This document shows, in pieces, positions 2,091-58,131 of a stretch of 61,340 nt of DNA (positions are counted from its first letter, which is position 1; the number at the start of each line of letters is the position of its first letter). Origin of the DNA: an uncultured Candidatus Saccharibacteria bacterium (GTDB taxonomy: Bacteria > Patescibacteriota > UBA1384 > XYA2-FULL-43-10 > 1-14-0-10-43-13); the NCBI GenBank assembly GCA_964628585.1, contig CAZVMH010000006.1:1-61340 (forward strand), read 5' to 3'. A program made the position numbers and the translations under genes. The notes beneath the pieces were generated by a model, which worked only from the letters and a program-made list of their open reading frames with translations, did not search any database and was not told the origin of the DNA.

Positions 2091-3600
2091 TACATGGCGC
2101 TATAAAAGGTTGTTCGAAATTCTACCCGGACTAATTGTTTGGATCGTCTTGTTATTCCCCTTGTCTTTGGCTATTTGGGCACCGGGTGCTCTGGCAATCT
2201 TTATGATATTTTTCCTCTCCTATTGGCTAGTTCGGACATTTTTTATGTCTGCCCATTTGGTTCAAGGATATTTTTATTATAAGGCGGAAACTAGCATCGA
2301 TTGGCTTTTGCGTCTAAAAGAATTAGCTCCAAAAGATGATTGGAAAGATATCTATCATTTAATTATTGTGCCGGAATATAAAGAACCAATTGAAATTTTG
2401 CGCAATTCGGTTGAATCAGTTTTAAAATCGGATTATCCAACAAATAATCTAATCTATGTTTTAGCAACAGAAGAGCGAGACAGAGAAGGAGCAATGAAGG
2501 CGGCTGAGGATTTAGGAAAAGAGTTTGGCAAAAAGATTGATTTTCATCATATTATGCATCCGGTTGGTTTGCCACAGGACAAAATCTTGGGAAAGGGCCC
2601 CAATATTACTTTTGCTGGCAAAGAGATTCTTAAATATATTGAAAGAAAAAAAATCCCTTTAGAGAATGTAATTGTGACTAATATGGATGCAGATCATGTA
2701 ATGGATAAAAAATATCTAGCTTGTCTTACCTATAAATATATTACTGATCCAGATCCACTACACAAAAGTTTTCAACCAATCCCAATGTTTTTCAACAATA
2801 TCTGGGATGTGCCAATGCTAACCCGCTTGATTGCAATGGGTTCTTCTTTCTGGCAACTGATTGTAAATACTAGGCCAACTCGTTTGCGAAATTTTTCTGC
2901 TCAAGCACAGAGTCTTGAGGCGCTTAAGGAAGTCAATTTTTGGTCAACAGAAACAATTGTTGAAGATGGCCATCAATTTTGGCGTACCTACTATCACTAT
3001 AACGGTTGTCATGAGGTAGTGCCTCTTTACACCCCAATTTATCAAGATGCCGTGCTTGGTGATAATTTTATCGAAACAATTAAAGAACAATACTTACAAA
3101 AAAGACGATGGTCTTGGGGTGTTTCCGATATTGCCTTTGTAATGGAGAGAACAATCGGCAATGAAGAAATCCCCTTTATTGATCGGTGGTCAAATGCTCT
3201 AATTCTTTGGGAGTCGCACATCTCTTGGTCAACTACTTCATTGATTTTAGCCACTTCTTCTTGGTTACCACTTGCATTAAATCCAGCTTTTAGAAATACA
3301 GTGCTTGCTTTTAATTTTCCACATGTTTATGCCTGGTTAGTCTCCCTTGCTTGGCTCGGCATGATCACAACTCTTGTGATCTCGACGCTATTGCTTCCTC
3401 CTCACAAGGGTAAAACTCCTGTAAAAAGAATAATTTTAGACTGGATCCTTACACCATTCGTTTTGCCAATATCTAACATATTGTTTTCCTCAATACCAGC
3501 TTTAGTTTCACAGACAAAGCTTATGTTCAATCAACAAATGGGAGTTTTCAGGGTAACTAAAAAATCTACCAAGCGTTCTTTTTTATCAACGGAGGAGTAA
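2083..3600 (+). CDS. Membrane glycosyltransferase family 2 (processive type)
   Basis: IIVPEYKEP, MDADH (DxD), VEDG and QKRRW (QxxRW) motifs flanked by TM helices. Confidence 0.85.
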   Translation: MSNTWRYKRLFEILPGLIVWIVLLFPLSLAIWAPGALAIFMIFFLSYWLVRTFFMSAHLVQGYFYYKAETSIDWLLRLKELAPKDDWKDIYHLIIVPEYKEPIEILRNSVESVLKSDYPTNNLIYVLATEERDREGAMKAAEDLGKEFGKKIDFHHIMHPVGLPQDKILGKGPNITFAGKEILKYIERKKIPLENVIVTNMDADHVMDKKYLACLTYKYITDPDPLHKSFQPIPMFFNNIWDVPMLTRLIAMGSSFWQLIVNTRPTRLRNFSAQAQSLEALKEVNFWSTETIVEDGHQFWRTYYHYNGCHEVVPLYTPIYQDAVLGDNFIETIKEQYLQKRRWSWGVSDIAFVMERTIGNEEIPFIDRWSNALILWESHISWSTTSLILATSSWLPLALNPAFRNTVLAFNFPHVYAWLVSLAWLGMITTLVISTLLLPPHKGKTPVKRIILDWILTPFVLPISNILFSSIPALVSQTKLMFNQQMGVFRVTKKSTKRSFLSTEE

Positions 3601-33605: not shown

Positions 33606-35219
33606 ATGGATCAATCCAATTCAAACCAAAAAAAGGGCGCTGTCGTTTATCTTCGCGTCTCGACAGAAGAACAGGTTGATAACTATTCCTTGGAAACACA
33701 GGAAGACATTTGTAACAAAGAGGCGCAAAAAAGAAAGCTCATAATTCGTCATACTTTTCGGGAGGAAGGAAAGTCGGCTAAAACCATAACCGGCAGACCG
33801 GTATTGATTGAAATGTTGGAGTTTTGCCGAAAACACAAAAAAGACATCGATGCCATCATTATCTATCGCTTGGATCGCATCTCGCGTCAAACAGCAGACT
33901 ATTTAGCAATCAGAAAGAAGCTGGCCGAGTGCGATATCAAATTAATCTCTGCAACCGAACCGACAGGCAACAGTCCGACGGAAAAATTCGTCGAGACAAT
34001 GCTTGCTGGCTTTGCTCAGATGGACAACGATGTCAGGAGTGAAAGAACAAAAAACGGCATGAAAGCAAGATTCTTGGCCGGATTAAACAGCGGCTATGTC
34101 CCGATGGGTTATTTAAATAATAACGGTTATGCCATAAAAGATCCGGAATTTTTCGATATTTTAAGTTATGGCTGGGATTTGATGGCGACAGGCGAGAAAA
34201 CCCTGAACGAAATGGTTAAGATTTTAAGCGAAAAAGGATTGCGGGGAGGAACCAAGGCCAAACCAACCATTCTAAGGGCTCAACAGCTTAATAGGATATT
34301 CCGAAACAAATTCTATGCCGGGAAAGTCATCTCAAAGAAGTATCACAAAGAAATTCAAGGCCAGCATCCGCCAATGGTAACTGAGGAAAAGTTTTACCAA
34401 GTCCAGGCGGCATTAGACGGAAGGAACACAAGAATTGCGATGCCGCTTGCCAGAAGAAACCGGGACAATCCGGAATTTCCACACCGCCGCTTTATTAAAT
34501 GCGGATGTTGCGGAGGTTCTTTCACCGGAGCCAAGAGTAAAGGAAAACGTCTTCATTATGGCTATTACTTTTGCCAGAAACGATGCAAGGGGGCAAATGC
34601 TTCCGTTGTAAAGATAGAAGAAAAAACTGAAAACCTTCTGGGGAAGATTGCGATCAAAGAAAAAACCGCAGAGCTCTTAAATGCTTATCTTAGAAGAAGA
34701 TACTATGAGAGGATCTCTACGCTGCAAAAAAGGCGGGATAGAGCCGATCAGGACCTTCGTGAGCTATATGAGTTTCGCCAGGCATTAATCCAGAAAAATA
34801 TCTCGGGAGTGTATTCCGATGAGGTCTTCAAAGAACAAAATAAGATTGTTGAGAAGAAAATACAAGCCGCAGTAATGGCCAAAGAGGATGAGTTGATTGA
34901 TAAATATAACTTAAAGGATATAACCCTGTTTATAAAAAATAAGCTCGGCAATCTTTTGCAAACATACAAAGATTCCGAGTTACAAGACAAGCGCACGCTC
35001 ATGTGTTCGATATTTCCCTCTGGACTGGTCTGGGACCAAAACGACTATTCACACACCGAAATTAGTCAATACTACAGCGCAATAACCGATATTGAAAAAC
35101 CTAGCATCCGGTTTGGTACCCCAGGCAGGATTCGAACCTGCGACCTAATGTTTAGAAAACATTTGCTCTATCCACTGAGCTACTGGGGCATTTTTTATGT
35201 CAAAACCCATTTCTTTTAA
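33606..35219 (+). CDS. Large serine recombinase (integrase)
   Basis: VYLRVSTEEQ catalytic Ser, YRLDRISR, recombinase domain, CGCCG/YYFC zinc ribbon, coiled coil; last 32 aa are encoded antisense to the tRNA. Confidence 0.93.
   Translation: MDQSNSNQKKGAVVYLRVSTEEQVDNYSLETQEDICNKEAQKRKLIIRHTFREEGKSAKTITGRPVLIEMLEFCRKHKKDIDAIIIYRLDRISRQTADYLAIRKKLAECDIKLISATEPTGNSPTEKFVETMLAGFAQMDNDVRSERTKNGMKARFLAGLNSGYVPMGYLNNNGYAIKDPEFFDILSYGWDLMATGEKTLNEMVKILSEKGLRGGTKAKPTILRAQQLNRIFRNKFYAGKVISKKYHKEIQGQHPPMVTEEKFYQVQAALDGRNTRIAMPLARRNRDNPEFPHRRFIKCGCCGGSFTGAKSKGKRLHYGYYFCQKRCKGANASVVKIEEKTENLLGKIAIKEKTAELLNAYLRRRYYERISTLQKRRDRADQDLRELYEFRQALIQKNISGVYSDEVFKEQNKIVEKKIQAAVMAKEDELIDKYNLKDITLFIKNKLGNLLQTYKDSELQDKRTLMCSIFPSGLVWDQNDYSHTEISQYYSAITDIEKPSIRFGTPGRIRTCDLMFRKHLLYPLSYWGIFYVKTHFF
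35114..35189 (-). tRNA. tRNA-Arg(TCT), integration target
   Basis: GCCCCAG/CTGGGGT acceptor stem, AATGT-TTTCTAA-ACATT anticodon arm, CCA end. Confidence 0.95.
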
Positions 35220-38147: not shown

Positions 38148-38194
38148 TGTTCTGATTGAATAAAATGTCTTTTTGTGATAAGATTTTTTAGTAT

Positions 38195-45648: not shown

Positions 45649-46596
45649 TTACGAACTGGATAACTTTTGAAATATCCTTAGTTTGGCACTACGGGAGCGG
45701 GGATTGATCAAAACTTCTTCGTTCGATGCGACTATTGGTTTTTTGGTTTCGATTTTAATAATTGGTTTTTTATTGCAAGCACAGGGCATATCTTTAGGGC
45801 ACTTACAGGGGTTTGCAAGATCAAAAAAGGTTTGCTTGACAATTCTATCTTCTAAAGAGTGAAAGGAGATTATGACAAACTTACTACTTGGCGATAGTAC
45901 ATCGCAAAAATCAATTATTGATTTGCCTAAGCCATCTAGTTCATTATTCGTTTCTATTCTTATTGCCTGAAATGTTCTGGTGGCAAAGTGGATTTTTCCA
46001 AACTGTTTTTTCTTAGGAATAGATTTTTCTACAATATATAGTAAATCGCCCACGGTTTTTATCGGTTTTTCTTTTCGAGTGGAAGCAATGTTATCGACAA
46101 TTCTTTTTGCATGTTTTTCTTCGCCATAGTCTCTTAGTATTTTCAGCAAATCAAACTTTGAGTATCCATTTACAACATCTTTTGCGCTAAAGGTCTGGGA
46201 CTGGTCCATTCTCATATCAAGTTCTTCATCTGGATTTTTGAAGGAAAAACCACGAGAAGTATCATCTAATTGCATTGAAGAAACGCCTAAGTCTAAAAGT
46301 GCTCCATTGATTTTATCGACACTCAACTTATCAAGTATATTTTTTAAGTTTTTAAAATCATCATGAATGAAAGTAAAAGAATCTGATAGTTTTTTGCTAG
46401 AGATATTTTTTTTCGATAAATTGATCGCAGACTGGTCTTTATCAATCGCAATGACTTGAGTTCCAGTTTTCTTTGCTATAGAAATGCTATGTCCAGCATT
46501 GCCAATCGTTCCATCAACAAAAATAGTATCTTTAATAGCTGAAAGATACGAAAAAATATTTACTATCTCATTCTCTAGGACTGGAATATGATTCAT
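45649..46596 (-). CDS. rsmH: 16S rRNA m4C1402 methyltransferase
   Basis: HIPVL, DGTIGNAGH, DLGVSSMQLD, FQAIRI, ISFHSLEDR, NPRSRSAKLR. Confidence 0.96.
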   Translation of the reverse strand: MNHIPVLENEIVNIFSYLSAIKDTIFVDGTIGNAGHSISIAKKTGTQVIAIDKDQSAINLSKKNISSKKLSDSFTFIHDDFKNLKNILDKLSVDKINGALLDLGVSSMQLDDTSRGFSFKNPDEELDMRMDQSQTFSAKDVVNGYSKFDLLKILRDYGEEKHAKRIVDNIASTRKEKPIKTVGDLLYIVEKSIPKKKQFGKIHFATRTFQAIRIETNNELDGLGKSIIDFCDVLSPSSKFVIISFHSLEDRIVKQTFFDLANPCKCPKDMPCACNKKPIIKIETKKPIVASNEEVLINPRSRSAKLRIFQKLSSS

Positions 46597-46631
46597 AAAA
46601 AGTTAAATACATTATGGTGGAGGTGGAGGGA
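46390..46631. repeat. 242-bp exact direct repeat (other copy 57384..57625)
   Basis: Covers rsmH 5' 207 nt, the 18-nt spacer and the last 17 nt of tmRNA; offset 10,994 bp; homology continues at lower identity to about 46887. Confidence 0.9.
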
Positions 46632-46887
46632 ATTGCACCCTCGTCCAAAAGGTTAGAAACATATTATCTACAAGCATAGTTCTGATTGGTGGTTTGAGAA
46701 ATAGATAGAAATCAGAACAAAAATCTACTTCTCTATCAGCTGTTTAACTTCAGTCTCTTTGCGCCTGACCCAAAGAGGTTGTAGCTCGAATTATTACACC
46801 CGTGGCTCCAGTTCGAGCAGACTAAAGACGGATGGTCGCGGCAATTAAGCAGCAACTGGCGCAAAGCTAGGAACTGCAAAAGCAGTC
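46615..46887 (-). pseudogene. ssrA: 5'-truncated, divergent tmRNA copy
   Basis: 3' end CCCTCCACCTCCACCA and tag end AFAVPSFAPVAA-stop are present; the 5' acceptor strand and resume codon are absent. Confidence 0.82.
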
Positions 46888-46911
46888 TTTTTTTCAATCC
46901 GGGTAATATTA

Positions 46912-48108
46912 TTACTGTGACTTTAGGGCCTGAAGAGGGCTTAGGCGGGCGGCACGAATTGCCGGATAGATTCCTGCAAAGAGGGCCAATCCGGTTGAGA
47001 CACAAAAAATAAATATTGCAAAATTTATTGGCATGATAAATAAAGTAAGGTCTTCTTCGATATTATTTGAACGAAGAATTACCAGAAGTATTACATTGAC
47101 AAGTTTCCCAATCAGCCAGCCTGTGAGTAAACCATATAGCGAGCTGGTAAAACCCATAATACCCGCTTCATAAAGAAAGATTTTGGCGATATCCCAATTA
47201 CTGGCGCCAACCGCTTTCATTATTCCAATCTCGTGAGTACGCTCCAGAAGCGAGATAGTCATAGTGTTGATAATCCCAATGGCCGCCACAAACAAAGCAA
47301 TTCCGCCAATTACGCCCAATATTATTTGAAAATAAAGAAACGCTTGATCTATCTGATCAACTAGATCTGAAATAGTAGTGGTCTGAAACCCCATACTTTC
47401 TATAATAGTTTTTGTTTCTTTTACGTATTTCCTGTCAGATACTTTTACATTCAATGTGTTATAAGATGTTACATCTTTGGTCTTTAAAATTGACAAGGGC
47501 ATGTAAACACTGTTTAGAGTTTCGTCAGCGGTAACTCCGACAACCTTCGCCTTAATTTCTCTCTCCTTAACCATTTCTTTATTCAAAAGACCGGTTACGA
47601 CTTTGAAATCGGTTTCTTTTCCGATTACTCCATCGGGGTCATTCTCTTTGCCAAACAATTTCAAAACCGCCTTCGATATAATAACTTCATTTTCTCCGTT
47701 TTTAAAGGTCTCCCCATTCGTTATAACCAGATCACTATATGGCAAACACTCTGCATTCATTCCCATTGCTATCACATCGCTTTGAGAATCGAAAAAGCTC
47801 ATCTGGGCGGGGTATTGCAGTTCAGGAGACACCCCTTGAATATTTGGTAAGCTCTTTATTTTTTCTATAATCGGTTCGTCAATTTTATTACTGTTTAAGC
47901 CTTCCTTTGAAGAAACCGTCAGCTTGGTTAAAGCGGTCAAGCTGGCAATTCTGGTAACCGAAATATGCTGCAAGCCCATACCCAAAGAAACCAAAATAAC
48001 GATCGCTGAAATGCTGACAATAACACCTAGCATAGTAAGACGAGATCTGATTTTGCTTCTAGATAAATTCCCCTTGGCGATTTTGTAGCAATCTGTAATT
48101 TTCATCAA
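46912..48108 (-). CDS. MacB/FtsX-family ABC permease
   Basis: LTMLGVIVSISA, periplasmic-type loop, ERTHEIGIMKAVGA, YPAIRAARL. Confidence 0.9.
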   Translation of the reverse strand: MMKITDCYKIAKGNLSRSKIRSRLTMLGVIVSISAIVILVSLGMGLQHISVTRIASLTALTKLTVSSKEGLNSNKIDEPIIEKIKSLPNIQGVSPELQYPAQMSFFDSQSDVIAMGMNAECLPYSDLVITNGETFKNGENEVIISKAVLKLFGKENDPDGVIGKETDFKVVTGLLNKEMVKEREIKAKVVGVTADETLNSVYMPLSILKTKDVTSYNTLNVKVSDRKYVKETKTIIESMGFQTTTISDLVDQIDQAFLYFQIILGVIGGIALFVAAIGIINTMTISLLERTHEIGIMKAVGASNWDIAKIFLYEAGIMGFTSSLYGLLTGWLIGKLVNVILLVILRSNNIEEDLTLFIMPINFAIFIFCVSTGLALFAGIYPAIRAARLSPLQALKSQ

Positions 48109-48827
48109 CGACCTTTCATTTCGCCTGTTATTTTTCCATCTTGCATTTCAATCACCCTGTCCGCAAAACCAAGATAATTTGGGTTGTGCGTTACAAGTAA
48201 AACAGTTTTTTTTGAATCTTTGTTCAGCGCTTTAATGATTTTCATAATTTCATTTGCCGCCTTGCTGTCAAGATTTCCTGTCGGTTCGTCAATAATTAGA
48301 ATTTCTGGATTGTTAACCAACGATCTAGCAATGGCTACTCTTTGTTGCTCGCCCCCGGACAATTCTATCGGTTTGTGTTCATATCTTTTTTCCAAACCCA
48401 TCCCTGTCAAAAGCTCTTTGGCGATTTTAACCCTTTGTTTATACCCCATATTATTGAAAATCAAAGGCAAAGTAACATTTTGCAAAGCCGTCATGGTTGG
48501 TATCAAATTGAAATCCTGAAAAACTATGCCAATATTTAACAACCTGTGCTTGGCCTTTACTCTGGAGCTACTCCTGCCTAGATCTTTACCATTTACTACT
48601 ACTGATCCGCTGGTAGCGCGATCCAAACCAGCAATCATGTTTAAAAGAGTTGTCTTTCCTGATCCGGAAGGACCGAACAAGATAACAAACTCTCCGGAAT
48701 AAATGTCGATATTTATTCCCTTTAATACTCTAATAATATTTTCGCCCAAAGAAAAATCCTTAACCAGATCTATCGTCTGTATCAAAGGTTTTTCAGTTTC
48801 TGGCACTTTTACCGCCTTCATTATCAA
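48105..48827 (-). CDS. ABC ATP-binding protein (LolD/MacB type)
   Basis: GPSGSGKT, LSGGEQQRVAIAR, DEPTGNLD, VTH. Confidence 0.94.
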   Translation of the reverse strand: MIMKAVKVPETEKPLIQTIDLVKDFSLGENIIRVLKGINIDIYSGEFVILFGPSGSGKTTLLNMIAGLDRATSGSVVVNGKDLGRSSSRVKAKHRLLNIGIVFQDFNLIPTMTALQNVTLPLIFNNMGYKQRVKIAKELLTGMGLEKRYEHKPIELSGGEQQRVAIARSLVNNPEILIIDEPTGNLDSKAANEIMKIIKALNKDSKKTVLLVTHNPNYLGFADRVIEMQDGKITGEMKGR

Positions 48828-49101
48828 AGTTAGTGCCAGTTTTTTCTTCTAATACCTTGACCTCCTTTTCGATCTTGAGAAAGTATCGCAAAAACTCATA
48901 AATACCGAAAAAGAAGAAAAAGATTATTATGGCAATAATAATTATGACGATAATACCCAAAAATAACTTAGACAGATTCATACCCTCTGAACTGGAGATC
49001 AGAAGAATTGCCACGAGAAGTACGCCAACCGATAAAACTATACCGATTGCCAGCGAAAGAAATGCTGAAAGGTTTATAAGTCTTTCTGCAATCTTTTTCA
49101 T
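48793..49101 (-). CDS. Small two-TM membrane protein
   Basis: Two hydrophobic helices; abuts or overlaps both neighbours. Confidence 0.7.
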   Translation of the reverse strand: MKKIAERLINLSAFLSLAIGIVLSVGVLLVAILLISSSEGMNLSKLFLGIIVIIIIAIIIFFFFFGIYEFLRYFLKIEKEVKVLEEKTGTNFDNEGGKSARN

Positions 49102-52100
49102 TTAACTCCTAAACCAAGATGAAAATTTTGCAATAATATCTTGAAATTGTTTTATTATAATTTCTAACACACTTTTTGTTTCGGTTTTTTGCGGTGTTTT
49201 AAATACAAGGTTACTGCTTTCGGCCCCGACACCATTGTCGGCGATGCTTTTAATTTTATATTTATATTCAGTTCCTGCTTGCAGACCATCAAGTATTACT
49301 AAGTGTGATGAATTTTGACTTTCGCTTTTTTCTGTTTCAATAGAAGGTTCACCGGGTCCGTAAACCACCTGACTGGTAGCCGGCCTGCTCGTTTGCCAAC
49401 TTATGGCTATCATCGCCTTATCATCTGAAAGCTGCGTCGCTTCTTCTAATAATTTCGGGTTAATAATCTCGGGCGCTCCGGTATCGTTATTATCAGGTCT
49501 GATACTAACAATGCCATCATTACCTTTCGTACGGTAGTAATATGTCTTTGTTGGCACAAGCGCTTGATCGACATAATAATTTTCGACTGGGGTTGCCAAA
49601 GCTGCAAAGTTTTTGCCGTCCTCTGATTTTTCAATCGTTTGCCCTGCTTTCGATAATGAAATAAATGAATTATAATGACTGAGCTCTGGATCAGAAACAT
49701 TGTAAACAATGAGCCCTTCTTTAGAAACCTGGGTTGGCTTTAATACTCCGATTTTTTCCAATATGGCGGCAGAGGCCTTGGTAAAGAGAGAAAAGACATC
49801 TTGCAAAGATCTGATAATTATTTCTAATGTAGATTGTTTCTTGATAATTCCATTCGTTCTAAAAACATTGCTTTCTGAAGTAATATTATTACCATAAATA
49901 TCTCGGCTTATAACCTTATATTGATACGAGGTGCTAGCTTTTAGACCGGTTATCAATACGCCGTGTCCGGTGTTTAGTTTGCTTAAATCTTCCTCGCCAT
50001 ACGATTTTCCTTCCATTTCAACCACAGAAGTTGCAAGTGAACTTGTTTTCCAGTTTATAAGTACAGAAGTGTTGCCACTATCAGGGTCAACGATTGTACT
50101 TGGCGTTGATTTGATATCCGTTATTGATAAAGTATTCGATTCTTTGGCAGAAATTTCCAAAGGAGCTTCCGGAGAAGAGGCGCTTTCATTGCCGGCCAGA
50201 TCTATACCTTTAACTGTGAATACATAGCGTCCTGGCTTTAATTCGTTTTTAACAAAATATCTCGGGCCTTCTTGGCTTACAGTCCCCACCTTTTCATTTG
50301 CCAAATATATAGCATACTCTTTCATACCCTCGCCTACCGCATCACTTGAAGACGTCCATGTTATGTAAGCAGCATATGAACCCGTAACTTTGTTTGAGAC
50401 GTCAAACACAACCGCTTTTGTTATTGCAGACGGAGCTGACGAATCAAACCTTACTTTATATTCTGAACTGATTGCAGACAAATTTCCGGCCCTCCCCTTG
50501 GTTTTAACCGAAAAGTAATAATATCCATCAGCTACCAATTTGGCTTCATATTTATTCGTTGAGACTTCTTCTCCATTAACGATATCAGTTTTGCCTGGTT
50601 CACTTCCTACATATACAAGGTAAGACCCAACTCCCGCCCCTTGATCGGTTGCAACATCCCATTCGAATATTACCGGAGAGTTTTTGGTAAGCGACAATTC
50701 ACTATTAGAAAGATTGGTTGCCTTAATGCCGGATGGAATAGTAGGCAAACTTTGATCTATACCAAATGTTCGTTTCTCCGATGAAGTTTCATTGGTTAAG
50801 TTGTCGATTGCTTTAACCTGCCATGTATGTTGGCCAAGAGTAAGATTTGTTAAGTCATAACTAGTTACGGAAGATAAAATGTTCCCATCCAATAAGGCAT
50901 CGTCAAAATAAAGTTGGTATTTTTGCAATCCAGAACCCAAATCGGATGCTGCCTCCCATGTTAATTGTAGAGAAGTTGTATTAGCCCAATAATTGTTTGC
51001 AGGAGAGTAAAGAGAGAATGCTTGAGGACCGGTAGTGTCCATGAGGATTGTGTCGGTATATACGCTAGACTCATTTCCGGCGGTGTCTTTAAATTTTATG
51101 TAAACAGTTTTAATACCATCGCCTGCTACTAAATTGTGCTCTATTTCAGCCCCATAGCTTTGCCAGGAGGAATAGTTCGCTCCGTTATTTGAAATAGCCA
51201 CCTCGGATACATCCCCGCCGCCGGTGTCACTTGCGGTAAACGAAAGAAAAACTCCAGCAGTAGTAACTTCAGGCTCATCACCATTAATAACAACGGAGCC
51301 AGTCGGAGGAGTAGTATCAATCAAAACAGTGCCGGCGTCAGAGACAACGCTTTCATTGGTCGCATTGTCGGTTGCTTTAACGGTGAGAGAATAACTGCCT
51401 TCAGCCAAGGTTGTTGATGTCCATGTAGTATTGTTGCCGATATTTGTCCAATCTCCAGAGCCATACCTTACTGAATAAGAATTAACCCCAGCCAAAGAAT
51501 CCTCTGATGATGTCCAGCTCCAAGTCGGTGTGGTGTCATTTGTTATAGCTATAGTGGTGGGCGTGCCAGGTTTTGTCGGTCCAGCCGTATCATAAATAAT
51601 TGAATCAGAAGCTGCGGCTGAAACATTGCCGGCATTGTCGGTAAATCTGGCGGCAATTGTTATATTGCCCGTTCCTCCTGTAATAGTATATACCGTTGGA
51701 TCTTCGGTATAGGCAAAAGGGTCTCCCCAAACCGTCCCTCCGTCTTCAGATACTTCAATAGTATTTAAACCGGAGGTAGCGTCTGTAGCTGACATATTAA
51801 GAGTTATGGAATTGTCATTGGTGTATGATCCTTCCGTTATTGTAACCTCTGGGCTTGTTGGAGCAGTTATATCCTTTATTATTGCCGCTTCTGTATCCGT
51901 CCCGGTATTATTCGCCAAATCCGTGTCTTTTAAGTAAAGACTAAAAGCGCCATCAGCCAGGCCGGTAAAACCAGTAATATCCGAAAGTGTAGTTGCCCCG
52001 CTGGTACAGGAGGACCAGTTGATATTGTTAATAGAACACTGGGGTGAAGTTGATTCGGTATCGGTAAAGCTAACAATCGTTGTTCCTTTAACAAATGCGC

Positions 52101-55100
52101 CGGCAACAGGAGCAGTAATATTGACAGTTGGGGCAGCAGTATCAACAGAGAAATCCGCCGCTGCCGGAGTCCCTGGTGGAGTGCCGTCGCTATTTCCGCC
52201 AAATGATACCCACGCAGATGTAGCACCACTATTGTCTATGGCCCTTGCTTGCCAATGATATTGCGTCCCGCTGACCAGACCACTGATAGTTATTGTGTTT
52301 GTGCAAGGAGACTGGCAAAAGCTATCCGATGTCCCGGAAACTGTTCCGTCAAAAGCAGAGTCAATCGGCTGGCGCTCAATTTGTAATTTTACTTCATCCA
52401 AATCTAAATCACTGATCGAGGCACTAAATTTTACTGAATCTGTGTTAATCCAACTTCCTGTGGCAATAGGAGTATCGTCTTCTTCGGCCTGATCAAGAGA
52501 CGTGGGTTCGCTTGGCATGGTATTGAACAACCAACCATCATTGTTGCCATTATCGGTAGATGTTGCCACAATTGGCGCTATGGTGCCTCCGGACACCGCA
52601 AAATCTCTCACATTTACATAGTTTACGTTGGTAATGTTTGAAGGAATTGCATAAGAATACCTGTCGCCGATTAAACCACTATCAGTTGTGCTTTGGTAGG
52701 TTATGCGCTTATCGCTGGCTGATCCCGAAAGAGAAAGTGTTCCGCTTACAGTTTGAGTCGTACCAGCCGTCGTCTTGATTGTTTTGGCCCCTTGGGACGA
52801 GTCAAAGGTTAGGTTATTGAAAGTAGTATTTCCAGAAATTGTAGCAAGAGAAGTGCCATCAAAAGTAACCGTACCAGAGTTGGCGGTAAAAGTAGCAGTA
52901 TTTGACCAATTGCCAGCCACATTTATATTTTGGCCATTGGCATCAAAAATCCCGGCGGAGTTGGTGAAGTTGCCGTTGATATCTAAGGGGCTAGTTATAA
53001 CCTGCAAAGTTCCGGCGCCGGAATGAATAATATTGTTAAACGCCTGCCCGCCGTTATCTAAGGTCTGGGTACTGCCACTATTAAGAGTGACTGTAGAATT
53101 ACTAAAGTTGGACCCAGTAGTTTCACTGTTTGACCAATTGCCAGAAACATTGAAATCAATAGTGTTAACACCATTTGTTAAAATTTGATTTGCCCCCCCA
53201 CCGGCACGAATCGTCATGGCTGTTGTGTTCACTGTTGACTTAGAACCGCCAGTATTTTGTATAACACCGTTTTTAACAGTTGAACCAGAATAACCAAGAA
53301 TAATTCCGCTGGCACCCGTCACGGTAAGATCGTAACCTTTAAGATCTAAAAGACCTTTGACATTATTGGCCCAATCCCCTCCGATCGAAATGTCAGTCGT
53401 ACTAATTGTCCCCAGTAGATTAAAAGTAGTAATACCAGCCGACCTGCAATAAAGAGTAAGAGGACCATATGACGCTGCAGGTATATTTACAGCATTGCCT
53501 CCATTGACAAAAAAATAAATTCTTAATCCGCTTATATTTGCCCCATTGTAAGTAATGGGCGTGCCTGACGCATAAAAACGCAAACCTGAGGCCCCATACC
53601 CCCCCGAATGCTGAACTGTTGTTGTGGCATCGCCAAAGGTAACGCTACCTCCCACACCAATACACGCTATGCCTTGATTAATAGTATATGTTGTTCCCCC
53701 GGTAGCAGGAAATTGAATGTTGTTAAAAACAGTACTAGCAGCCGCCGGGAAGCTCATTGTGCCACTATCCGCAAAAATAATCGTGCTCGAACCAGCATAA
53801 AAATGGGTATCGTAACCACTTTGAGACCAGTTGCCATGACAAGTAATAGTTGACGCCGATGAAGTAGCGTTGATATTACCCGTACCATTGAGTGTTATAT
53901 TGTGAGCATAGATGTTGTAATCGTTGGAAGCAGGCCGAACGTCCAAAGTCGCGCCGGTAGAGATGGTTAGATCGCCGGCCAATGCGTTTGCATCGGTTAG
54001 ATTGCCGGTTAGGTTGTAGGTGGTAGCTGTTCCGCCAGTAGGGCTCAATATTAAATTATTGTAAGGAGCAGTAGTTATGTTAGTTGCTGTTGTTACTCCG
54101 GCATAGGTGACGGTCGATCCGGTGGTTGTCAACGCTCCGTTGATTGTTAGAGGTGTGCCGGTGCCGGTCAAGGTAAAGTTTCGGCTAGAAATATCAAGAG
54201 TGTCTTCTGCTGCAACTGTAATGGAGGTCGCCTTAATATCTGTCTGTGCCGTTATTACGGCTGCACTACTACTATTAAAATTCAATATTCCCAAATCTTG
54301 CTTCACAGTGTTGTTGTCAGTTATACTGGCCGCTGCAGTATCTGTAGTAATATTTATTTTTGCAATACCGTCATCCTGTTTTGTCCACGTTGCGCCGTTG
54401 GCAATTGTAAGACTCCCGTTAATATACACTTCAGGATCATTGGTAGCCAAATCAAGAACAGCAGTCCCTTCAACGCTCAAATTGTTCCCGGCAGCTAATA
54501 TCCCGGATACAACTTTTGTGCCGGAACCGGAAAAAACAGCATTCCCGCCGAGTGCAACCCCACTAGCGTTAAAGGCAATATTTTGACCACCCCCCGAAAA
54601 ATTAACCGTAGAATTGTTATCGATTACTGATAAACCCGTCGTGTCTATAACAGAAACATCCCCTTGAATATTTAAGGTTGATGAATTTTGCAAAGTAAAG
54701 GTCTCTGCCGTTGCAATGGAAAAAGCCCCGCTTCCTCCGTTGGCGCTCGATATTGTCAAAGTATGTCCGCCATCCACATAGAATACATTCCCGCCACTTT
54801 CAAGCATAGTGACAGACGCCACTGTTTTGTCGGAATTTAAAATAATATCAGAATCAATTATAACGTTAAAAATGCGATCAGCAGTGTTGTTTGGAATTTC
54901 GGGTAGCTCTGAAGGACCACAAATCCAGTTGTCAGCCACATCCCAGTTTGTCGGATCTTCAGACGCTGCAATGAATCTACAATCAACTATAGTCGCTTCA
55001 GCTTTCGCCTTCTGAATCGTGCCACCAAACAAACCCAAAAAAGAACCGACAAAGGTACCAAGAATCATTATTGTTAAAAAACTCATGTGCACAGCGTTGG

Positions 55101-55383
55101 CATTGGGATTTAAATGCCATCGATAATACCAACCGTACTTCATCCTTAAACGATCATGGACCGGAACAAACCACCTAAGGGAAGTTTTTGTGCTCCGCTG
55201 AATTCTTAATAATTTATCATCTTCATCCATGTTTACCATCTTTTGATCCAAGACCTTTCGCTGTTTTTTGTTTTTAAACCAATTTTTAAATTCATAAGTA
55301 TAGCACTCGCCGACAATAAGACATATGGAAAAGACCGCTAATGTTAAAAGCAGCAAGAGAACTAGTACCGTAGTGATCCACAC
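49102..55383 (-). CDS. 2093-aa surface protein (beta-helix-like region plus Ig/FN3-like domains)
   Basis: N-terminal TM segments, T/G/N-rich beta-solenoid-like repeats (GNWSN, TVTFDG), repeated D-x-AGN and D-T-T-x-P Ig signatures. Confidence 0.85.
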   Translation of the reverse strand: MWITTVLVLLLLLTLAVFSICLIVGECYTYEFKNWFKNKKQRKVLDQKMVNMDEDDKLLRIQRSTKTSLRWFVPVHDRLRMKYGWYYRWHLNPNANAVHMSFLTIMILGTFVGSFLGLFGGTIQKAKAEATIVDCRFIAASEDPTNWDVADNWICGPSELPEIPNNTADRIFNVIIDSDIILNSDKTVASVTMLESGGNVFYVDGGHTLTISSANGGSGAFSIATAETFTLQNSSTLNIQGDVSVIDTTGLSVIDNNSTVNFSGGGQNIAFNASGVALGGNAVFSGSGTKVVSGILAAGNNLSVEGTAVLDLATNDPEVYINGSLTIANGATWTKQDDGIAKINITTDTAAASITDNNTVKQDLGILNFNSSSAAVITAQTDIKATSITVAAEDTLDISSRNFTLTGTGTPLTINGALTTTGSTVTYAGVTTATNITTAPYNNLILSPTGGTATTYNLTGNLTDANALAGDLTISTGATLDVRPASNDYNIYAHNITLNGTGNINATSSASTITCHGNWSQSGYDTHFYAGSSTIIFADSGTMSFPAAASTVFNNIQFPATGGTTYTINQGIACIGVGGSVTFGDATTTVQHSGGYGASGLRFYASGTPITYNGANISGLRIYFFVNGGNAVNIPAASYGPLTLYCRSAGITTFNLLGTISTTDISIGGDWANNVKGLLDLKGYDLTVTGASGIILGYSGSTVKNGVIQNTGGSKSTVNTTAMTIRAGGGANQILTNGVNTIDFNVSGNWSNSETTGSNFSNSTVTLNSGSTQTLDNGGQAFNNIIHSGAGTLQVITSPLDINGNFTNSAGIFDANGQNINVAGNWSNTATFTANSGTVTFDGTSLATISGNTTFNNLTFDSSQGAKTIKTTAGTTQTVSGTLSLSGSASDKRITYQSTTDSGLIGDRYSYAIPSNITNVNYVNVRDFAVSGGTIAPIVATSTDNGNNDGWLFNTMPSEPTSLDQAEEDDTPIATGSWINTDSVKFSASISDLDLDEVKLQIERQPIDSAFDGTVSGTSDSFCQSPCTNTITISGLVSGTQYHWQARAIDNSGATSAWVSFGGNSDGTPPGTPAAADFSVDTAAPTVNITAPVAGAFVKGTTIVSFTDTESTSPQCSINNINWSSCTSGATTLSDITGFTGLADGAFSLYLKDTDLANNTGTDTEAAIIKDITAPTSPEVTITEGSYTNDNSITLNMSATDATSGLNTIEVSEDGGTVWGDPFAYTEDPTVYTITGGTGNITIAARFTDNAGNVSAAASDSIIYDTAGPTKPGTPTTIAITNDTTPTWSWTSSEDSLAGVNSYSVRYGSGDWTNIGNNTTWTSTTLAEGSYSLTVKATDNATNESVVSDAGTVLIDTTPPTGSVVINGDEPEVTTAGVFLSFTASDTGGGDVSEVAISNNGANYSSWQSYGAEIEHNLVAGDGIKTVYIKFKDTAGNESSVYTDTILMDTTGPQAFSLYSPANNYWANTTSLQLTWEAASDLGSGLQKYQLYFDDALLDGNILSSVTSYDLTNLTLGQHTWQVKAIDNLTNETSSEKRTFGIDQSLPTIPSGIKATNLSNSELSLTKNSPVIFEWDVATDQGAGVGSYLVYVGSEPGKTDIVNGEEVSTNKYEAKLVADGYYYFSVKTKGRAGNLSAISSEYKVRFDSSAPSAITKAVVFDVSNKVTGSYAAYITWTSSSDAVGEGMKEYAIYLANEKVGTVSQEGPRYFVKNELKPGRYVFTVKGIDLAGNESASSPEAPLEISAKESNTLSITDIKSTPSTIVDPDSGNTSVLINWKTSSLATSVVEMEGKSYGEEDLSKLNTGHGVLITGLKASTSYQYKVISRDIYGNNITSESNVFRTNGIIKKQSTLEIIIRSLQDVFSLFTKASAAILEKIGVLKPTQVSKEGLIVYNVSDPELSHYNSFISLSKAGQTIEKSEDGKNFAALATPVENYYVDQALVPTKTYYYRTKGNDGIVSIRPDNNDTGAPEIINPKLLEEATQLSDDKAMIAISWQTSRPATSQVVYGPGEPSIETEKSESQNSSHLVILDGLQAGTEYKYKIKSIADNGVGAESSNLVFKTPQKTETKSVLEIIIKQFQDIIAKFSSWFRS

Positions 55384-55594
55384 CCTCCTCCTTTCATTTC
55401 AATCAACAATACTATTATAGTATATAATAGCGATTCTTGGCAAATCTACTGTTCTCTCCCCCTTTCAAAGAATAAACTAACCCTATCTGCAACTTGTCTC
55501 TGAACTGCATCGAAATAATCCTCAAATAAATAATTATTCAATAATTATAAAAAGCCGCCATTGCTGGGGGCTTTTTTATAATTTGCGAGCGTTT

Positions 55595-56350
55595 TTACTT
55601 TTTTTCTTGGTTCTTACCAAATTTTACTTTGGTAGCCTTCTTCGGCTCTACTTTGGGAAGTTTGATTGTTAAAACACCATCTTTCATGTCTGCTTCCGCT
55701 TTGTCGGCAACAACATCTGAAGGAAGTGAAAAACTTCTCGAAAATTCACCAGAATGGCTTTCTTTATGGTAGTACCCTTCCTCTTCTGTTTCCTTTTCCT
55801 CCATCTTCTTTCCCGATATTGTCATGACTCCGTCAGCTATCTCAACTTCGATTTCTTCTTCCTTCATGCCCGGCAACTCGGCTTTCACAACCAAATCCGA
55901 CTTTGTGTCCTTTATGTCAATTTTTGGCATGACTGCCATTCCTCTTGGCGTAATAACGCTGTCTTCAAACAAACGATCCATTGCATCGCGCAAAGAGACC
56001 ATCTCTCGAAAAGGTCTCCATGGCTCAATTTCTTGTGACATATGTGTCTCCTTTCCGGCCCAATCTTCTTGTTTCGAAGATTGCGGCTTATTAATAATAT
56101 TTTTTATATTACCATTATTATCCTTGTCTCCAGCCAATTCAAATGGCAGTTCTAACAATTCATCAATACCTGAATCAAAAAACTTGCACATAGTCAAAAT
56201 CAACGGAAGCGACGGAAGAAATTTGCCCTGTTCCAGTGCAATTATTGATTGACGTGAAATTCCAAGCTCTTCGGCAAGCTCTTCCTGACTCAATTTTTTG
56301 CTTTTCCGTAAATCACGTAAACGGATTACTATTGAAAAATTTTCATCCAT
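55595..56350 (-). CDS. XRE-HTH / Hsp20 fusion protein
   Basis: LRDLRKSKKLSQEELAEELGISRQSI + linker + alpha-crystallin domain (AELPG, FSRSFSLP, GVLTIKLPK); internal RBS and ATG at 56041. Confidence 0.88.
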   Translation of the reverse strand: MDENFSIVIRLRDLRKSKKLSQEELAEELGISRQSIIALEQGKFLPSLPLILTMCKFFDSGIDELLELPFELAGDKDNNGNIKNIINKPQSSKQEDWAGKETHMSQEIEPWRPFREMVSLRDAMDRLFEDSVITPRGMAVMPKIDIKDTKSDLVVKAELPGMKEEEIEVEIADGVMTISGKKMEEKETEEEGYYHKESHSGEFSRSFSLPSDVVADKAEADMKDGVLTIKLPKVEPKKATKVKFGKNQEKK

Positions 56351-56385
56351 AAAGTATTCAGCTAAATAGTTTAATCTTATCAATT

Positions 56386-56416
56386 AAAATGTAAAGTAAA
56401 CTTTACATTTTGTCAA
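56386..56416 (-). promoter_or_regulatory. Promoter with palindromic operator upstream of the HTH-Hsp20 gene
   Basis: AAAATGTAAAG-N4-CTTTACATTTT (56386-56411) lying over TTGACA-17-TACATT. Confidence 0.7.
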
Positions 56417-56584
56417 GGGGCGGGGTTCCATTCGCCCCGCAGACCCCCAACGAAGTGCTATTATGAATCGTGGACGTAGACCACGTGAATAACAAAACGT
56501 AGTGGGGTCAATTTATCATGAACACGCAAGTAGTATATTTTCTTAATTATTACTAGTTCGCTTGAATGCTTGTATGCTTATCAG

Positions 56585-57136
56585 TTAACCGTTATCTGAT
56601 TTAATATACAAATACATTTTTGTCTTTATGCCCAGCGTTCGCGTGTAGGAAATATTTTTCGGTTTCATTGTCAAATTAAAAGCTAAAGACACAATTCTTG
56701 TTTTTGATCCAACGCTCTTAAGCAACCAGTTTTCTATTTTTTTTACCGTTTTAAAAAGCAAGTACATGTAAACTACATCCGATTTTTTCAAATATTTCTC
56801 CGCTTTTACAAAGTCGCTAATAATAATTTTTATATTATTTTTCTCCCCCAAAAGACTTACCCTTATTTTGGCCAGCAGAAAACAGTAAAGCGATTTTTCC
56901 ACTCCAATACCCTTTGCGCCAAATATTTTTGATGCAATAATGAGCGTTTTTCCATTTCCGCAACCCAGATCAACTACCGTTTCGCCCCTTTTAAGCTTTG
57001 CCAGTTTTAAACAATCAATGACTGCCTCGTCGCTGGCATAGACAATGGGCGCACCCGATTTCAGAGCATAAATCAAATTTATTTGCCAAAATAAAAGAAA
57101 TAGAAGTATAATTATAATTAGAATTAATAAGTCCAT
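56585..57136 (-). CDS. SAM-dependent methyltransferase with N-terminal TM
   Basis: VVDLGCGNG, IGVE, DVVYMYL. Confidence 0.85.
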   Translation of the reverse strand: MDLLILIIIILLFLLFWQINLIYALKSGAPIVYASDEAVIDCLKLAKLKRGETVVDLGCGNGKTLIIASKIFGAKGIGVEKSLYCFLLAKIRVSLLGEKNNIKIIISDFVKAEKYLKKSDVVYMYLLFKTVKKIENWLLKSVGSKTRIVSLAFNLTMKPKNISYTRTLGIKTKMYLYIKSDNG

Positions 57137-57154
57137 ATATTTAATATATCAGAT

Positions 57155-57382
57155 ATGAACGAACATGAATTTACCGAGTTGGTGAAACAACTCGTAAAAT
57201 ATGAAAGAAGGTTGTCAAGTCTGGCTTGGAACTTTTGGCGTGGGATTGTTTATGGTTTAGGTTTTTTTATAGGTTCTGCCCTACTGGCCGCTTTAATTAT
57301 CTACATTCTTGGACGAGTTGAGGACGGAAGTGCCGTTGGAAGATACCTTCAAGATTTCGTGGAGATATTGAGAGGGCAATAA
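57155..57382 (+). CDS. Small membrane protein (DUF5665-like)
   Basis: WNFWRGIVYGLGFFIGS...; stop codon abuts the repeat boundary. Confidence 0.65.
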   Translation: MNEHEFTELVKQLVKYERRLSSLAWNFWRGIVYGLGFFIGSALLAALIIYILGRVEDGSAVGRYLQDFVEILRGQ

Positions 57383-57383
57383 A

Positions 57384-57590
57384 TTTTTTGCTAGAGATAT
57401 TTTTTTTCGATAAATTGATCGCAGACTGGTCTTTATCAATCGCAATGACTTGAGTTCCAGTTTTCTTTGCTATAGAAATGCTATGTCCAGCATTGCCAAT
57501 CGTTCCATCAACAAAAATAGTATCTTTAATAGCTGAAAGATACGAAAAAATATTTACTATCTCATTCTCTAGGACTGGAATATGATTCAT
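57384..57590 (-). pseudogene. rsmH: Truncated 5' copy of rsmH
   Basis: First 69 codons identical to 46596..46390, then runs into unrelated sequence. Confidence 0.88.
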
Positions 57591-57608
57591 AAAAAGTTAA
57601 ATACATTA

Positions 57609-57997
57609 TGGTGGAGGTGGAGGGAGTTGCACCCTCGTCCAAAAGGTTAAAAACGTACATTTTACAAGCTTATCTCCGATAAATTTTGATCAAATAATGG
57701 ATAGAATCGGAGAAAAAATCCACTACTTTATCAGCTGTTTAACTTAGGTTTCTTCGCGCCTGACCCAAAGAAACTGTAGTTCGAGATATGACACTCATGA
57801 CTTCGATTCGAACAGACCAAAGGTGAGCGGTTGCCACAATTAAGCAGCAACTGGCGCAAAGCTAGGAACTGCGAAAGCAGATCTTACTTTGCTAAAAAGT
57901 GTGTTTGCACTTAAGTTTTTGCCAACATTTAAAGCGATTGGCGTTCTTGCTTGCAATATGTTTTTAAGGTTCCTTTTGTCGAAGCTAAAACACCCCC
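57609..57997 (-). ncRNA. ssrA: tmRNA (full length)
   Basis: 5' GGGGGTG...TTCGAC, 3' CACCTCCACCA; tag reading frame ANTLFSKVRSAFAVPSFAPVAA-stop. Confidence 0.93.
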
Positions 57998-58131
57998 AAG
58001 TCAATATATAATCCTACATTATTTTGCGAAAATGTCAACATAAAATCGACTTTCGGCCATTTTTTGCTTGTAGATAACTGTTTATTGTTATATAATATAT
58101 ATAGCAAGCGTTAAACTAATTAGGAGGGAAA

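Follow-up and report, generated by a model that had tools for sequence, protein, structure and literature searches.

An 11-kb cassette without an integrase between the tmRNA and rsmH genes of a Berkelbacteria-like population, and its possible movement by homologous recombination

Genes for transfer-messenger RNA (tmRNA, encoded by ssrA) are classic landing sites of genomic islands, and the landing is normally carried out by an integrase. The work of Williams in 2002/2003 reportedly describes tyrosine-integrase islands at sublocations of the tmRNA gene. Campbell-type insertion-duplication, and the RecA-dependent deletion or tandem amplification that takes place between direct repeats, belong to general bacterial genetics. 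Homology-facilitated illegitimate recombination during natural transformation is said to have been described by de Vries and Wackernagel and by Prudhomme et al. In Dehalococcoides, the ssrA genomic islands (ssrA-GIs) are moved by a serine recombinase, DsiB (PMC3146451). Here, we describe an 11-kb cassette inserted between the tmRNA gene and rsmH, a 16S rRNA methyltransferase gene, in contig CAZVMH010000006.1. The window, that is the whole stretch of DNA analysed (61,340 nt), is this entire contig (C6), which belongs to a metagenome-assembled genome (MAG) of 851 kb, made up of 18 contigs and 97% complete. Because the best relative of the cassette permease that bears an organism name is a Candidatus Berkelbacteria MAG, the genome was assigned to the candidate phyla radiation (CPR) or Patescibacteria. 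The host is a Berkelbacteria-like population of this group, part of which carries the insertion.

We lean towards a recent Campbell-type insertion-duplication, whose cassette is now deleted, and possibly amplified, by the homologous recombination of the host. The recombination itself is textbook matter. What is new here is the combination of an island at the tmRNA site, probable homologous-recombination dynamics in a CPR bacterium and the footprint of a foreign tmRNA.

The duplicated tmRNA-rsmH segment

A repeat search followed by pairwise alignment identified a direct repeat, 46390-46686 and 57384-57680, that continues to 46885 and 57880 with a 1-nt indel. Its exact part, named R, is identical at 242/242 positions (46390-46631 and 57384-57625, offset 10,994), as the original prediction had claimed, and such a match is far beyond what is expected by chance. 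R is composed of the last 17 nt of tmRNA (from position 7 of the T-loop), an 18-nt spacer and nucleotides 1-207 of rsmH, so that the repeat does reach 207 nt into the protein gene, as predicted. Upstream of R, a further ~258 nt of the tmRNA body are alike at ~78-81%. The total duplicated segment therefore measures ~500 bp, with 242 bp of exact repeat and ~258 bp of a diverged tmRNA allele. When the 851-kb genome was compared to itself with BLAST (at least 100 nt and at least 90% identity), just two other repeats were listed; the match of R itself averages 89% and hence falls under the filter.

The locus is read hereafter on the minus strand, from the 5' to the 3' end of tmRNA. The body of the full tmRNA is called a2 (57626-57997) and that of the partial copy a1 (46632-46889); b2 denotes the cargo side (below 57384) and b1 the rest of the full rsmH (below 46390). 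ARAGORN, Rfam and Pfam agree on the gene order originally proposed, namely full tmRNA, truncated rsmH, cargo, truncated tmRNA and full rsmH:

58011-58038, minus strand: promoter-like site TTGACA-16-TAGGAT just upstream of the tmRNA 5' end (consensus scan only)
57609-57997, minus strand: intact resident tmRNA with body a2 and tag ANTLFSKVRSAFAVPSFAPVAA (ARAGORN; Rfam RF00023, 114 bits, full length)
57384-57625: left R copy (repeat search, alignments)
57297-57590, minus strand: truncated rsmH, within a 97-aa open reading frame (ORF) of 69-70 genuine residues followed by read-through into the cargo
46632-46889, minus strand: a1, 3' fragment (~nt 113 to T-loop) of a foreign tmRNA allele (identity and paired-base changes)
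46390-46631: right R copy (repeat search, alignments)
45649-46596, minus strand: intact rsmH (16S rRNA m4C1402 methyltransferase), 315 aa (Pfam Methyltransf_5, 3e-103; synteny with relatives)

The rsmH portion of the truncated gene (57384-57590) covers only positions 3-68 of the 309 positions of the Methyltransf_5 profile in Pfam, and its residues 1-70 match at 99% with tblastn. The partial tmRNA, made of a1 and the tmRNA part of R (46615-46889, minus strand), is devoid of the first ~112 nt and scores 36.8 bits in Rfam, below the gathering threshold; Rfam places it at 46615-46978, where the first ~112 model positions are not genuinely matched. The intact rsmH is followed by queH and smpB. Since a contiguous segment comprising the tmRNA 3' end and the rsmH 5' end stands on both flanks of the cargo, both tmRNA and rsmH are preserved intact. 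On the rsmH strand, neither the 18-nt spacer nor the 3' part of tmRNA (46390-46631) contained a consensus promoter for this gene. The gene is probably transcribed by read-through; it would be read from tmRNA where the allele is empty and from the operon of the ATP-binding cassette (ABC) transporter where it is filled.

Empty, filled and possible circle/tandem junctions in independent assemblies

All the junction evidence consists of assembled contigs; those independent of the present sample were found via exact-protein look-ups and then aligned to the window. The empty site, a2-R-b1, which the original prediction had proposed to look for, is present in three contigs (L024, Logan SRR29243449; L025, SRR12447078; L026, JGI 3300076594). 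L024 (3752 nt) corresponds to window positions 59074 to 57384 joined directly to 46389 to 44329. The 49 mismatches between the empty-site contigs and the right-hand window copy are all accounted for by differences between a1 and a2, from which it follows that the flanks are identical. More generally, over 2-7.5 kb, the flanks agree at 99.9-100% between empty and filled alleles, with one mismatch in 7482 nt for L023. Logan contigs derive from a simple graph with k=31, and the two Logan empty-site contigs pass through R unbranched; hence, only the empty form is appreciable in SRR29243449 and SRR12447078. The existence of the empty form is highly likely. The comparison with relatives that had been suggested leads to the same arrangement. 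In a sister species (Logan contigs L063 and L064; RsmH 86% identical in amino acids), tmRNA is immediately followed by rsmH, and the empty state is therefore ancestral for the two species. With the empty site and the synteny of the sister species in hand, the two R copies are seen to rebuild together one contiguous and uninterrupted segment of the chromosome.

The left junction of the filled site, a2-R-b2 (full tmRNA, R, truncated rsmH, cargo), was recovered at 99.9-100% identity in contigs L027, L044, L045 and L048, from four samples (JGI 3300076256, 3300076258, 3300076591 and 3300076298). A further contig, L028, contains a1 and 99 nt of R, and then ends. In SRR29243451, two contigs (L023 and L055) end exactly at the boundary between a and R, as expected of a branch between a1 and a2; the Logan contig L055 also ends at a palindrome near 59536-59583. 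Exact-pattern scans of metagenome and genome contig collections with the a1 fragment gave no match, the JGI samples that hold a1 being evidently outside these collections. Because a1 is always followed by R (L028 and L046, see below) and because R has only two known exits, the a2-R-b2 junction, if real, entails an integrated copy, either single or tandem. The integrated form is very likely to be genuine.

The joint expected from a circle or from tandem copies, a1-R-b2 (cargo-R-a1-permease), another of the suggested checks, was found in one contig, L046 (JGI 3300076255), with 100% identity. Nucleotides 1-428 of L046 correspond to window positions 56956-57383, and nucleotides 429-1875 to 46390-47836. 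The reality of this joint appears less certain than that of the integrated and empty forms. Finally, JGI 3300076594 contains the empty junction together with cargo contigs in one sample, and a single habitat series yielded all three forms (empty, filled and circle/tandem joint), with identical flanks.

This arrangement resembles Campbell-type insertion-duplication in several respects. A contiguous segment of the chromosome lies on both sides of the insert, the interrupted genes are whole, recA is present and the empty site exists; for the circle/tandem joint, one contig shows the predicted sequence. In contrast with a Campbell plasmid construct, the cassette is a natural 11-kb chromosomal unit of an uncultivated CPR bacterium. 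As far as can be judged from sequence, the present structure is that expected if a circle with the cargo, a1 and R had entered the chromosome by one crossover. The cassette encodes no recombinase (see below) and is bordered by perfect 242-bp repeats, which would make the general recombination of the host the likely mover. R, perfect over its whole length, is well above the minimal length for RecA pairing. A crossover between the two R copies would restore precisely the ancestral tmRNA-rsmH junction and free an 11-kb circle, and an unequal crossover between sister chromosomes would give tandem copies of the cassette. The enzyme involved would be RecA, whose gene is present, and the recombination would be ongoing rather than historical.

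Several points weigh against this view of a cassette moved by host recombination. The right junction, a1-R-b1, is found in the MAG contig only, the circle/tandem joint rests on a single 1.9-kb JGI contig, and every junction comes from short-read assemblies, in which a 242-bp repeat can be crossed along a wrong path. Genes for replication or transfer are absent from the circle, so that its re-integration or spread would be conjectural. Identical flanks fit recurrent excision, but also a single recent insertion with persistence of cells that never received it. A history more complex than a simple insertion is also possible, because part of the cargo is a conserved tmRNA neighbour in relatives and because the gene order of a paralogous locus on contig C1 is that of the circle junction (see below).

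The persistence of never-recipient cells is at the heart of one other explanation, in which the insertion is historical and fixed, no recombination takes place at present, the empty contigs represent such cells and L046 is a mis-join by the assembler; it is only by this treatment of L046 that it differs from the explanation that we prefer. A fixed insertion agrees with the ancestral empty state in the sister species and with the occurrence of the circle/tandem joint in L046 only, and a strain mixture would explain the empty and cargo contigs of 3300076594. Nevertheless, the flank identity of 99.9-100% over 2-7.5 kb makes any split very recent, a perfect 242-bp direct repeat in a recA+ genome is expected to recombine measurably, and L046 is 100% identical on both sides of exactly the predicted joint. 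We consider a fixed insertion rather unlikely.

An assembly artefact, put forward from the start as a real alternative, has been weakened by the left junctions assembled in the four other samples. In that case, the chromosome would always be empty and the 11 kb, present as a free circle or elsewhere, would have been threaded in through the shared 242 bp. The alternative path through R indeed gives an empty chromosome and a 10,994-bp circle, both of whose junctions occur among the contigs, and the genome is an 18-contig MAG in which alone the right junction is found. It is however unlikely that the same wrong path was taken in four cases out of five, and a left junction that is real requires an integrated copy, a1 always leading to R and R having only two known exits. 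Moreover, the circle would have no replication gene and no match to a plasmid or phage. All in all, an artefact appears very improbable.

Cargo genes and the recombination enzymes of the genome

The insertion unit of 10,994 bp comprises 10.5 kb of cargo, a1 and one R copy. Seven genes fill the 10.5 kb:

57155-57382, plus strand: DUF5665 small membrane protein (Pfam PF18910), with its stop codon 1 nt from the end of R (boundary b2)
56585-57136, minus strand: S-adenosylmethionine-dependent methyltransferase-like protein, 183 aa (weak Pfam class-I methyltransferase matches)
55595-56350, minus strand: HTH(XRE)-Hsp20 fusion (Pfam HTH_3 and HSP20; 76% paralogue on contig C1)
49102-55383, minus strand: giant protein of 2093 aa with FN3, Big_13 and Ig-like domains (Pfam, hydropathy, composition)
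48793-49101, minus strand: hydrophobic small protein of 102 aa (translation; same-position protein in homologous modules, L062)
48105-48821, minus strand: ABC transporter ATPase (Pfam ABC_tran, 4e-36)
46912-48105, minus strand: MacB/FtsX-type ABC permease (Pfam MacB_PCD and FtsX; 91%-identical sister-lineage orthologue)

The giant protein has two N-terminal hydrophobic segments followed by a part rich in threonine, serine and glycine (33% for the three residues together), and is predicted to be a membrane-anchored, adhesin-like surface protein. The GC content of the cassette ranges from 0.37 to 0.46, compared with 0.375 for the genome, and its origin is not settled by composition. A plasmid or phage origin was rejected, since megablast gave no match and PHROGs no recombinase or replication match. 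A paralogous locus lies on contig C1 (1-8303). It has an ABC ATPase (3-191), a permease (251-1453), a DUF5665 protein on the minus strand (2339-2563, 64% identical), an HTH-Hsp20 protein (2663-3391, 76% identical) and then a giant protein of 1644 aa. Its gene order is that of the circle junction of the cassette, but it has neither the methyltransferase nor a piece of tmRNA or rsmH. A third module of giant protein, ATPase and permease occupies C1:12274-18418 on the minus strand. In the window, the region upstream of tmRNA (58132-60946) encodes an FN3 protein (464 aa), whose counterpart in the sister species is 80% identical, and a 381-aa protein with DUF3466/HAF-like repeats, with a GC content of up to 0.56 compared with 0.375 for the genome.

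In line with the original prediction of an integrase-free element, Pfam and PHROGs revealed no recombinase or integrase, replication or transfer gene in any cassette ORF, and no unassigned space in the cassette is large enough for an integrase. The whole genome contains one recA (C7:14778-15563) and one tyrosine recombinase, which is Xer-like and presumably Xer. A serine integrase of 537 aa (window 33606-35219) belongs to a separate integrative and conjugative element (ICE). The attachment (att) region of this integrase, at its tRNA-Arg target, shows no similarity to the tmRNA 3' end, and its action in trans on the cassette was thereby ruled out.

These data can be set against the features of integrase-moved ssrA islands. 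As in such islands, the insertion lies immediately 3' of a single-copy tmRNA gene that remains intact (the full tmRNA directly precedes R and then the cargo), the far boundary bears a copy of the tmRNA 3' end, the limit of identity falls in the T-loop, and the downstream interval is variable in relatives. In contrast, the cassette carries no integrase or integration module; its repeat is not of ~20 bp but of 242 bp exact, extending 225 nt beyond tmRNA into rsmH; and its distal fragment contains ~258 nt of a foreign tmRNA body, whereas in islands only the displaced native 3' end is found. The cassette thus departs from the definition of ssrA islands on two counts: it encodes no integrase of its own, and its repeat is not restricted to the gene.

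One may still imagine a classical tmRNA island whose site-specific recombinase is now lost, works in trans or has its gene on unassembled DNA, with a crossover in the T-loop. The limit between a1 and the exact identity lies in the T-loop, which is also the insertion point of the islands of the ssrA-specific serine recombinase in Dehalococcoides (PMC3146451); yet the conserved tRNA-like domain would lead to the same boundary if recombination were anchored by homology. The window does contain the ICE serine integrase, but its tRNA-Arg target is unlike the tmRNA 3' end, and with no recombinase in the cassette the genome is left with one tyrosine recombinase only. An interval between tmRNA and rsmH of 0.9 to 33 kb in relatives would suit such an island; the 225 nt of identity past tmRNA into rsmH are not needed by any att site. 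A site-specific origin seems improbable to us.

Foreign and native DNA at the boundaries and in relatives

From nucleotide 113 of tmRNA to the T-loop, a2 and the allele of the sister species are 94.9% identical, whereas the identity of a1 is 78.3% with a2, 79.1% with the sister allele and 71.9% with genus g14. When a1 and a2 are compared on the Rfam model, to which both alignments were fitted, 11 base pairs are altered on both sides and still paired in both alleles, and ~3 are broken in a1. Because of these 11 compensatory changes, we infer that a1 derives from a foreign allele that was once a working tmRNA in another lineage; the same changes ruled out a decayed duplicate of the resident tmRNA. 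As a1 is less like a2 than the sister allele is, its donor must be more distant than the sister species.

The situation is different for R. Nucleotides 1-207 of rsmH differ at 30/207 positions between this genome and the sister species (85.5% identity), whereas the two R copies are 100% identical. Both R copies, on either side of the cargo, are therefore native, and the idea that the whole duplicated segment, including the rsmH part, is foreign was discarded. The boundary between a1 and R is read here as a recombination joint between foreign and native DNA. It falls where tmRNA is most conserved, the last mismatch being a T-loop position that 22 identical bases precede. Of the product originally proposed, a single crossover of a circle carrying cargo and the tmRNA-rsmH junction, the structure fits a circle made of cargo, a1 and R. 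The incoming DNA was not simply the carrier of a foreign tmRNA-rsmH junction, since the 242 bp are native and only a1 is foreign. The presence of a foreign tmRNA fragment beside native R also distinguishes the locus from the product of a simple Campbell crossover, and the founding must have needed more than one crossover.

The two other joints are abrupt. R meets b2 1 nt beyond the stop codon of the DUF5665 gene, and the permease gene meets a1 25 nt beyond its stop codon, directly after the motif ATTGAAAAAAAG. In contig L061 of a sister lineage (permease 91% identical in amino acids, 82% in nucleotides), homology ends at the permease stop codon, and the promoter of an RNA gene and the start of a tRNA come next; the homology to the window ends at 46908. 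In L061, ATTGAAAAAAAG is the beginning of this promoter, with the tRNA after it. A native adjacency of permease and a1 was therefore rejected. The promoter-like motif, ATTGAAnAAAA..TCTTTTT.TGATAAnATTTTTTAGTAT, is shared by window positions 46890-46911 and 38150-38194 and by L061 1660-1700. It precedes a tRNA-Pro in the window and the RNA gene after the permease in L061; the cassette retains only its first part (ATTGAAAAAAAG), which abuts a1 and marks the illegitimate joint.

These boundaries recall homology-facilitated illegitimate recombination. There is a short conserved anchor on one side, the tRNA-like 3' end of tmRNA, and there are non-homologous joints 1 nt past the DUF5665 stop codon and 25 nt past that of the permease. 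In homology-facilitated illegitimate recombination, recipient DNA is normally replaced or deleted; in the present case, 242 bp of it are duplicated. Our best guess for the founding event is as follows. Foreign DNA would have paired with the conserved 3' end of tmRNA as a homology anchor, ~225 nt of host sequence would have been copied, an illegitimate joining of this end to the opposite one would then have closed the fragment into a circle, and integration of the circle through R would have followed. Such a scheme accounts for the native R, the foreign a1 and the two illegitimate joints. For Patescibacteria, one study documents natural competence as well as insertion by recombination (PMC10633639).

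The gene order in the sister species is Hsp20 (minus), methyltransferase (minus), DUF5665 (plus), FN3 protein (minus), tmRNA (plus), rsmH (plus) and queH (plus). In L063 (Logan SRR30503913, 1-4508), the three-gene block of the left end of the cassette is thus on the other side of tmRNA and in the opposite orientation; the methyltransferase of L063 is merely 45% identical, compared with 80-90% for the FN3 protein, RsmH and SmpB. DUF5665, methyltransferase and Hsp20 genes are conserved neighbours of tmRNA in relatives G001, G007 and G021 and in the sister species, with varying sides and orientations, and methyltransferase homologues adjoin tmRNA in G001, G007 and L063. Some of the cargo may therefore be DNA from the tmRNA neighbourhood of a related lineage, or rearranged native DNA. 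The ABC pair is 82% identical in nucleotides to that of the sister lineage, so that part of the cargo is maybe native to the genus. Starting from the sister gene order, one or two inversions were considered as a route to the present arrangement, and no simple scheme yields both joints.

In seven relatives of different genera (G001, G005, G007, G008, G009, G014 and G018; loci L030-L038), tmRNA and rsmH are on the same strand, at distances of 0.9, 4.4, 7.9, 13.7, 17, 18.8 and 32.6 kb. The interval between tmRNA and rsmH thus appears as a family-wide variable region. Among 41 genomes of the order, a long partial tmRNA was found in this genome only. Second tmRNA fragments in G023 and G031 were considered as possible signs of ordinary ssrA islands and dismissed, the first being a 123-nt overlap of contig ends and the second lying at a contig start. 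In the present genome, contig C3 carries an 81-nt match to the Rfam tmRNA model (101766-101846, minus strand; 67.6 bits, above gathering). This element resembles the tRNA-like domain of tmRNA without the mRNA-like part, begins with GGGGGTG and ends with GGACGCGGGTTCAATTCCCGCCATCTCCACCA. It has a G3:U70-type pair, and ARAGORN calls it neither a tRNA nor a tmRNA.

A broader reading, which we regard as doubtful when all its parts are taken jointly, would make this locus one case of integrase-free CPR cassettes that are anchored by homology, circularise, transform and land on the tmRNA 3' end, with surface switching by RecA only. Such cassettes would be fragments of the tmRNA neighbourhood of the chromosome of one lineage landing in another, the giant surface protein and its ABC module would be switched on, off or to multiple copies in relation to an epibiotic lifestyle, and the previous host would have left its footprint in the form of the foreign tmRNA fragment.

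Taken together, the anatomy of the locus and the population data suggest that general recombination alone accounts for the gain and loss, and possibly the amplification, of this 11-kb adhesin-like/ABC cassette. For specialists, the noteworthy aspects are the evidence at population level and the mosaic of foreign and native DNA in the repeat. The study of MAGs calls for some caution in this respect, since a 242-bp repeat can mask two or three co-existing genome forms behind one contig. The phylum of the host is characterized by tiny genomes with few mobile-element enzymes, and relatives within this phylum, the Saccharibacteria, are naturally competent. If confirmed, the cassette would provide a concrete example of variation of the surface repertoire within a CPR population, and of a conserved RNA gene serving as a cross-lineage homology anchor for gene transfer.

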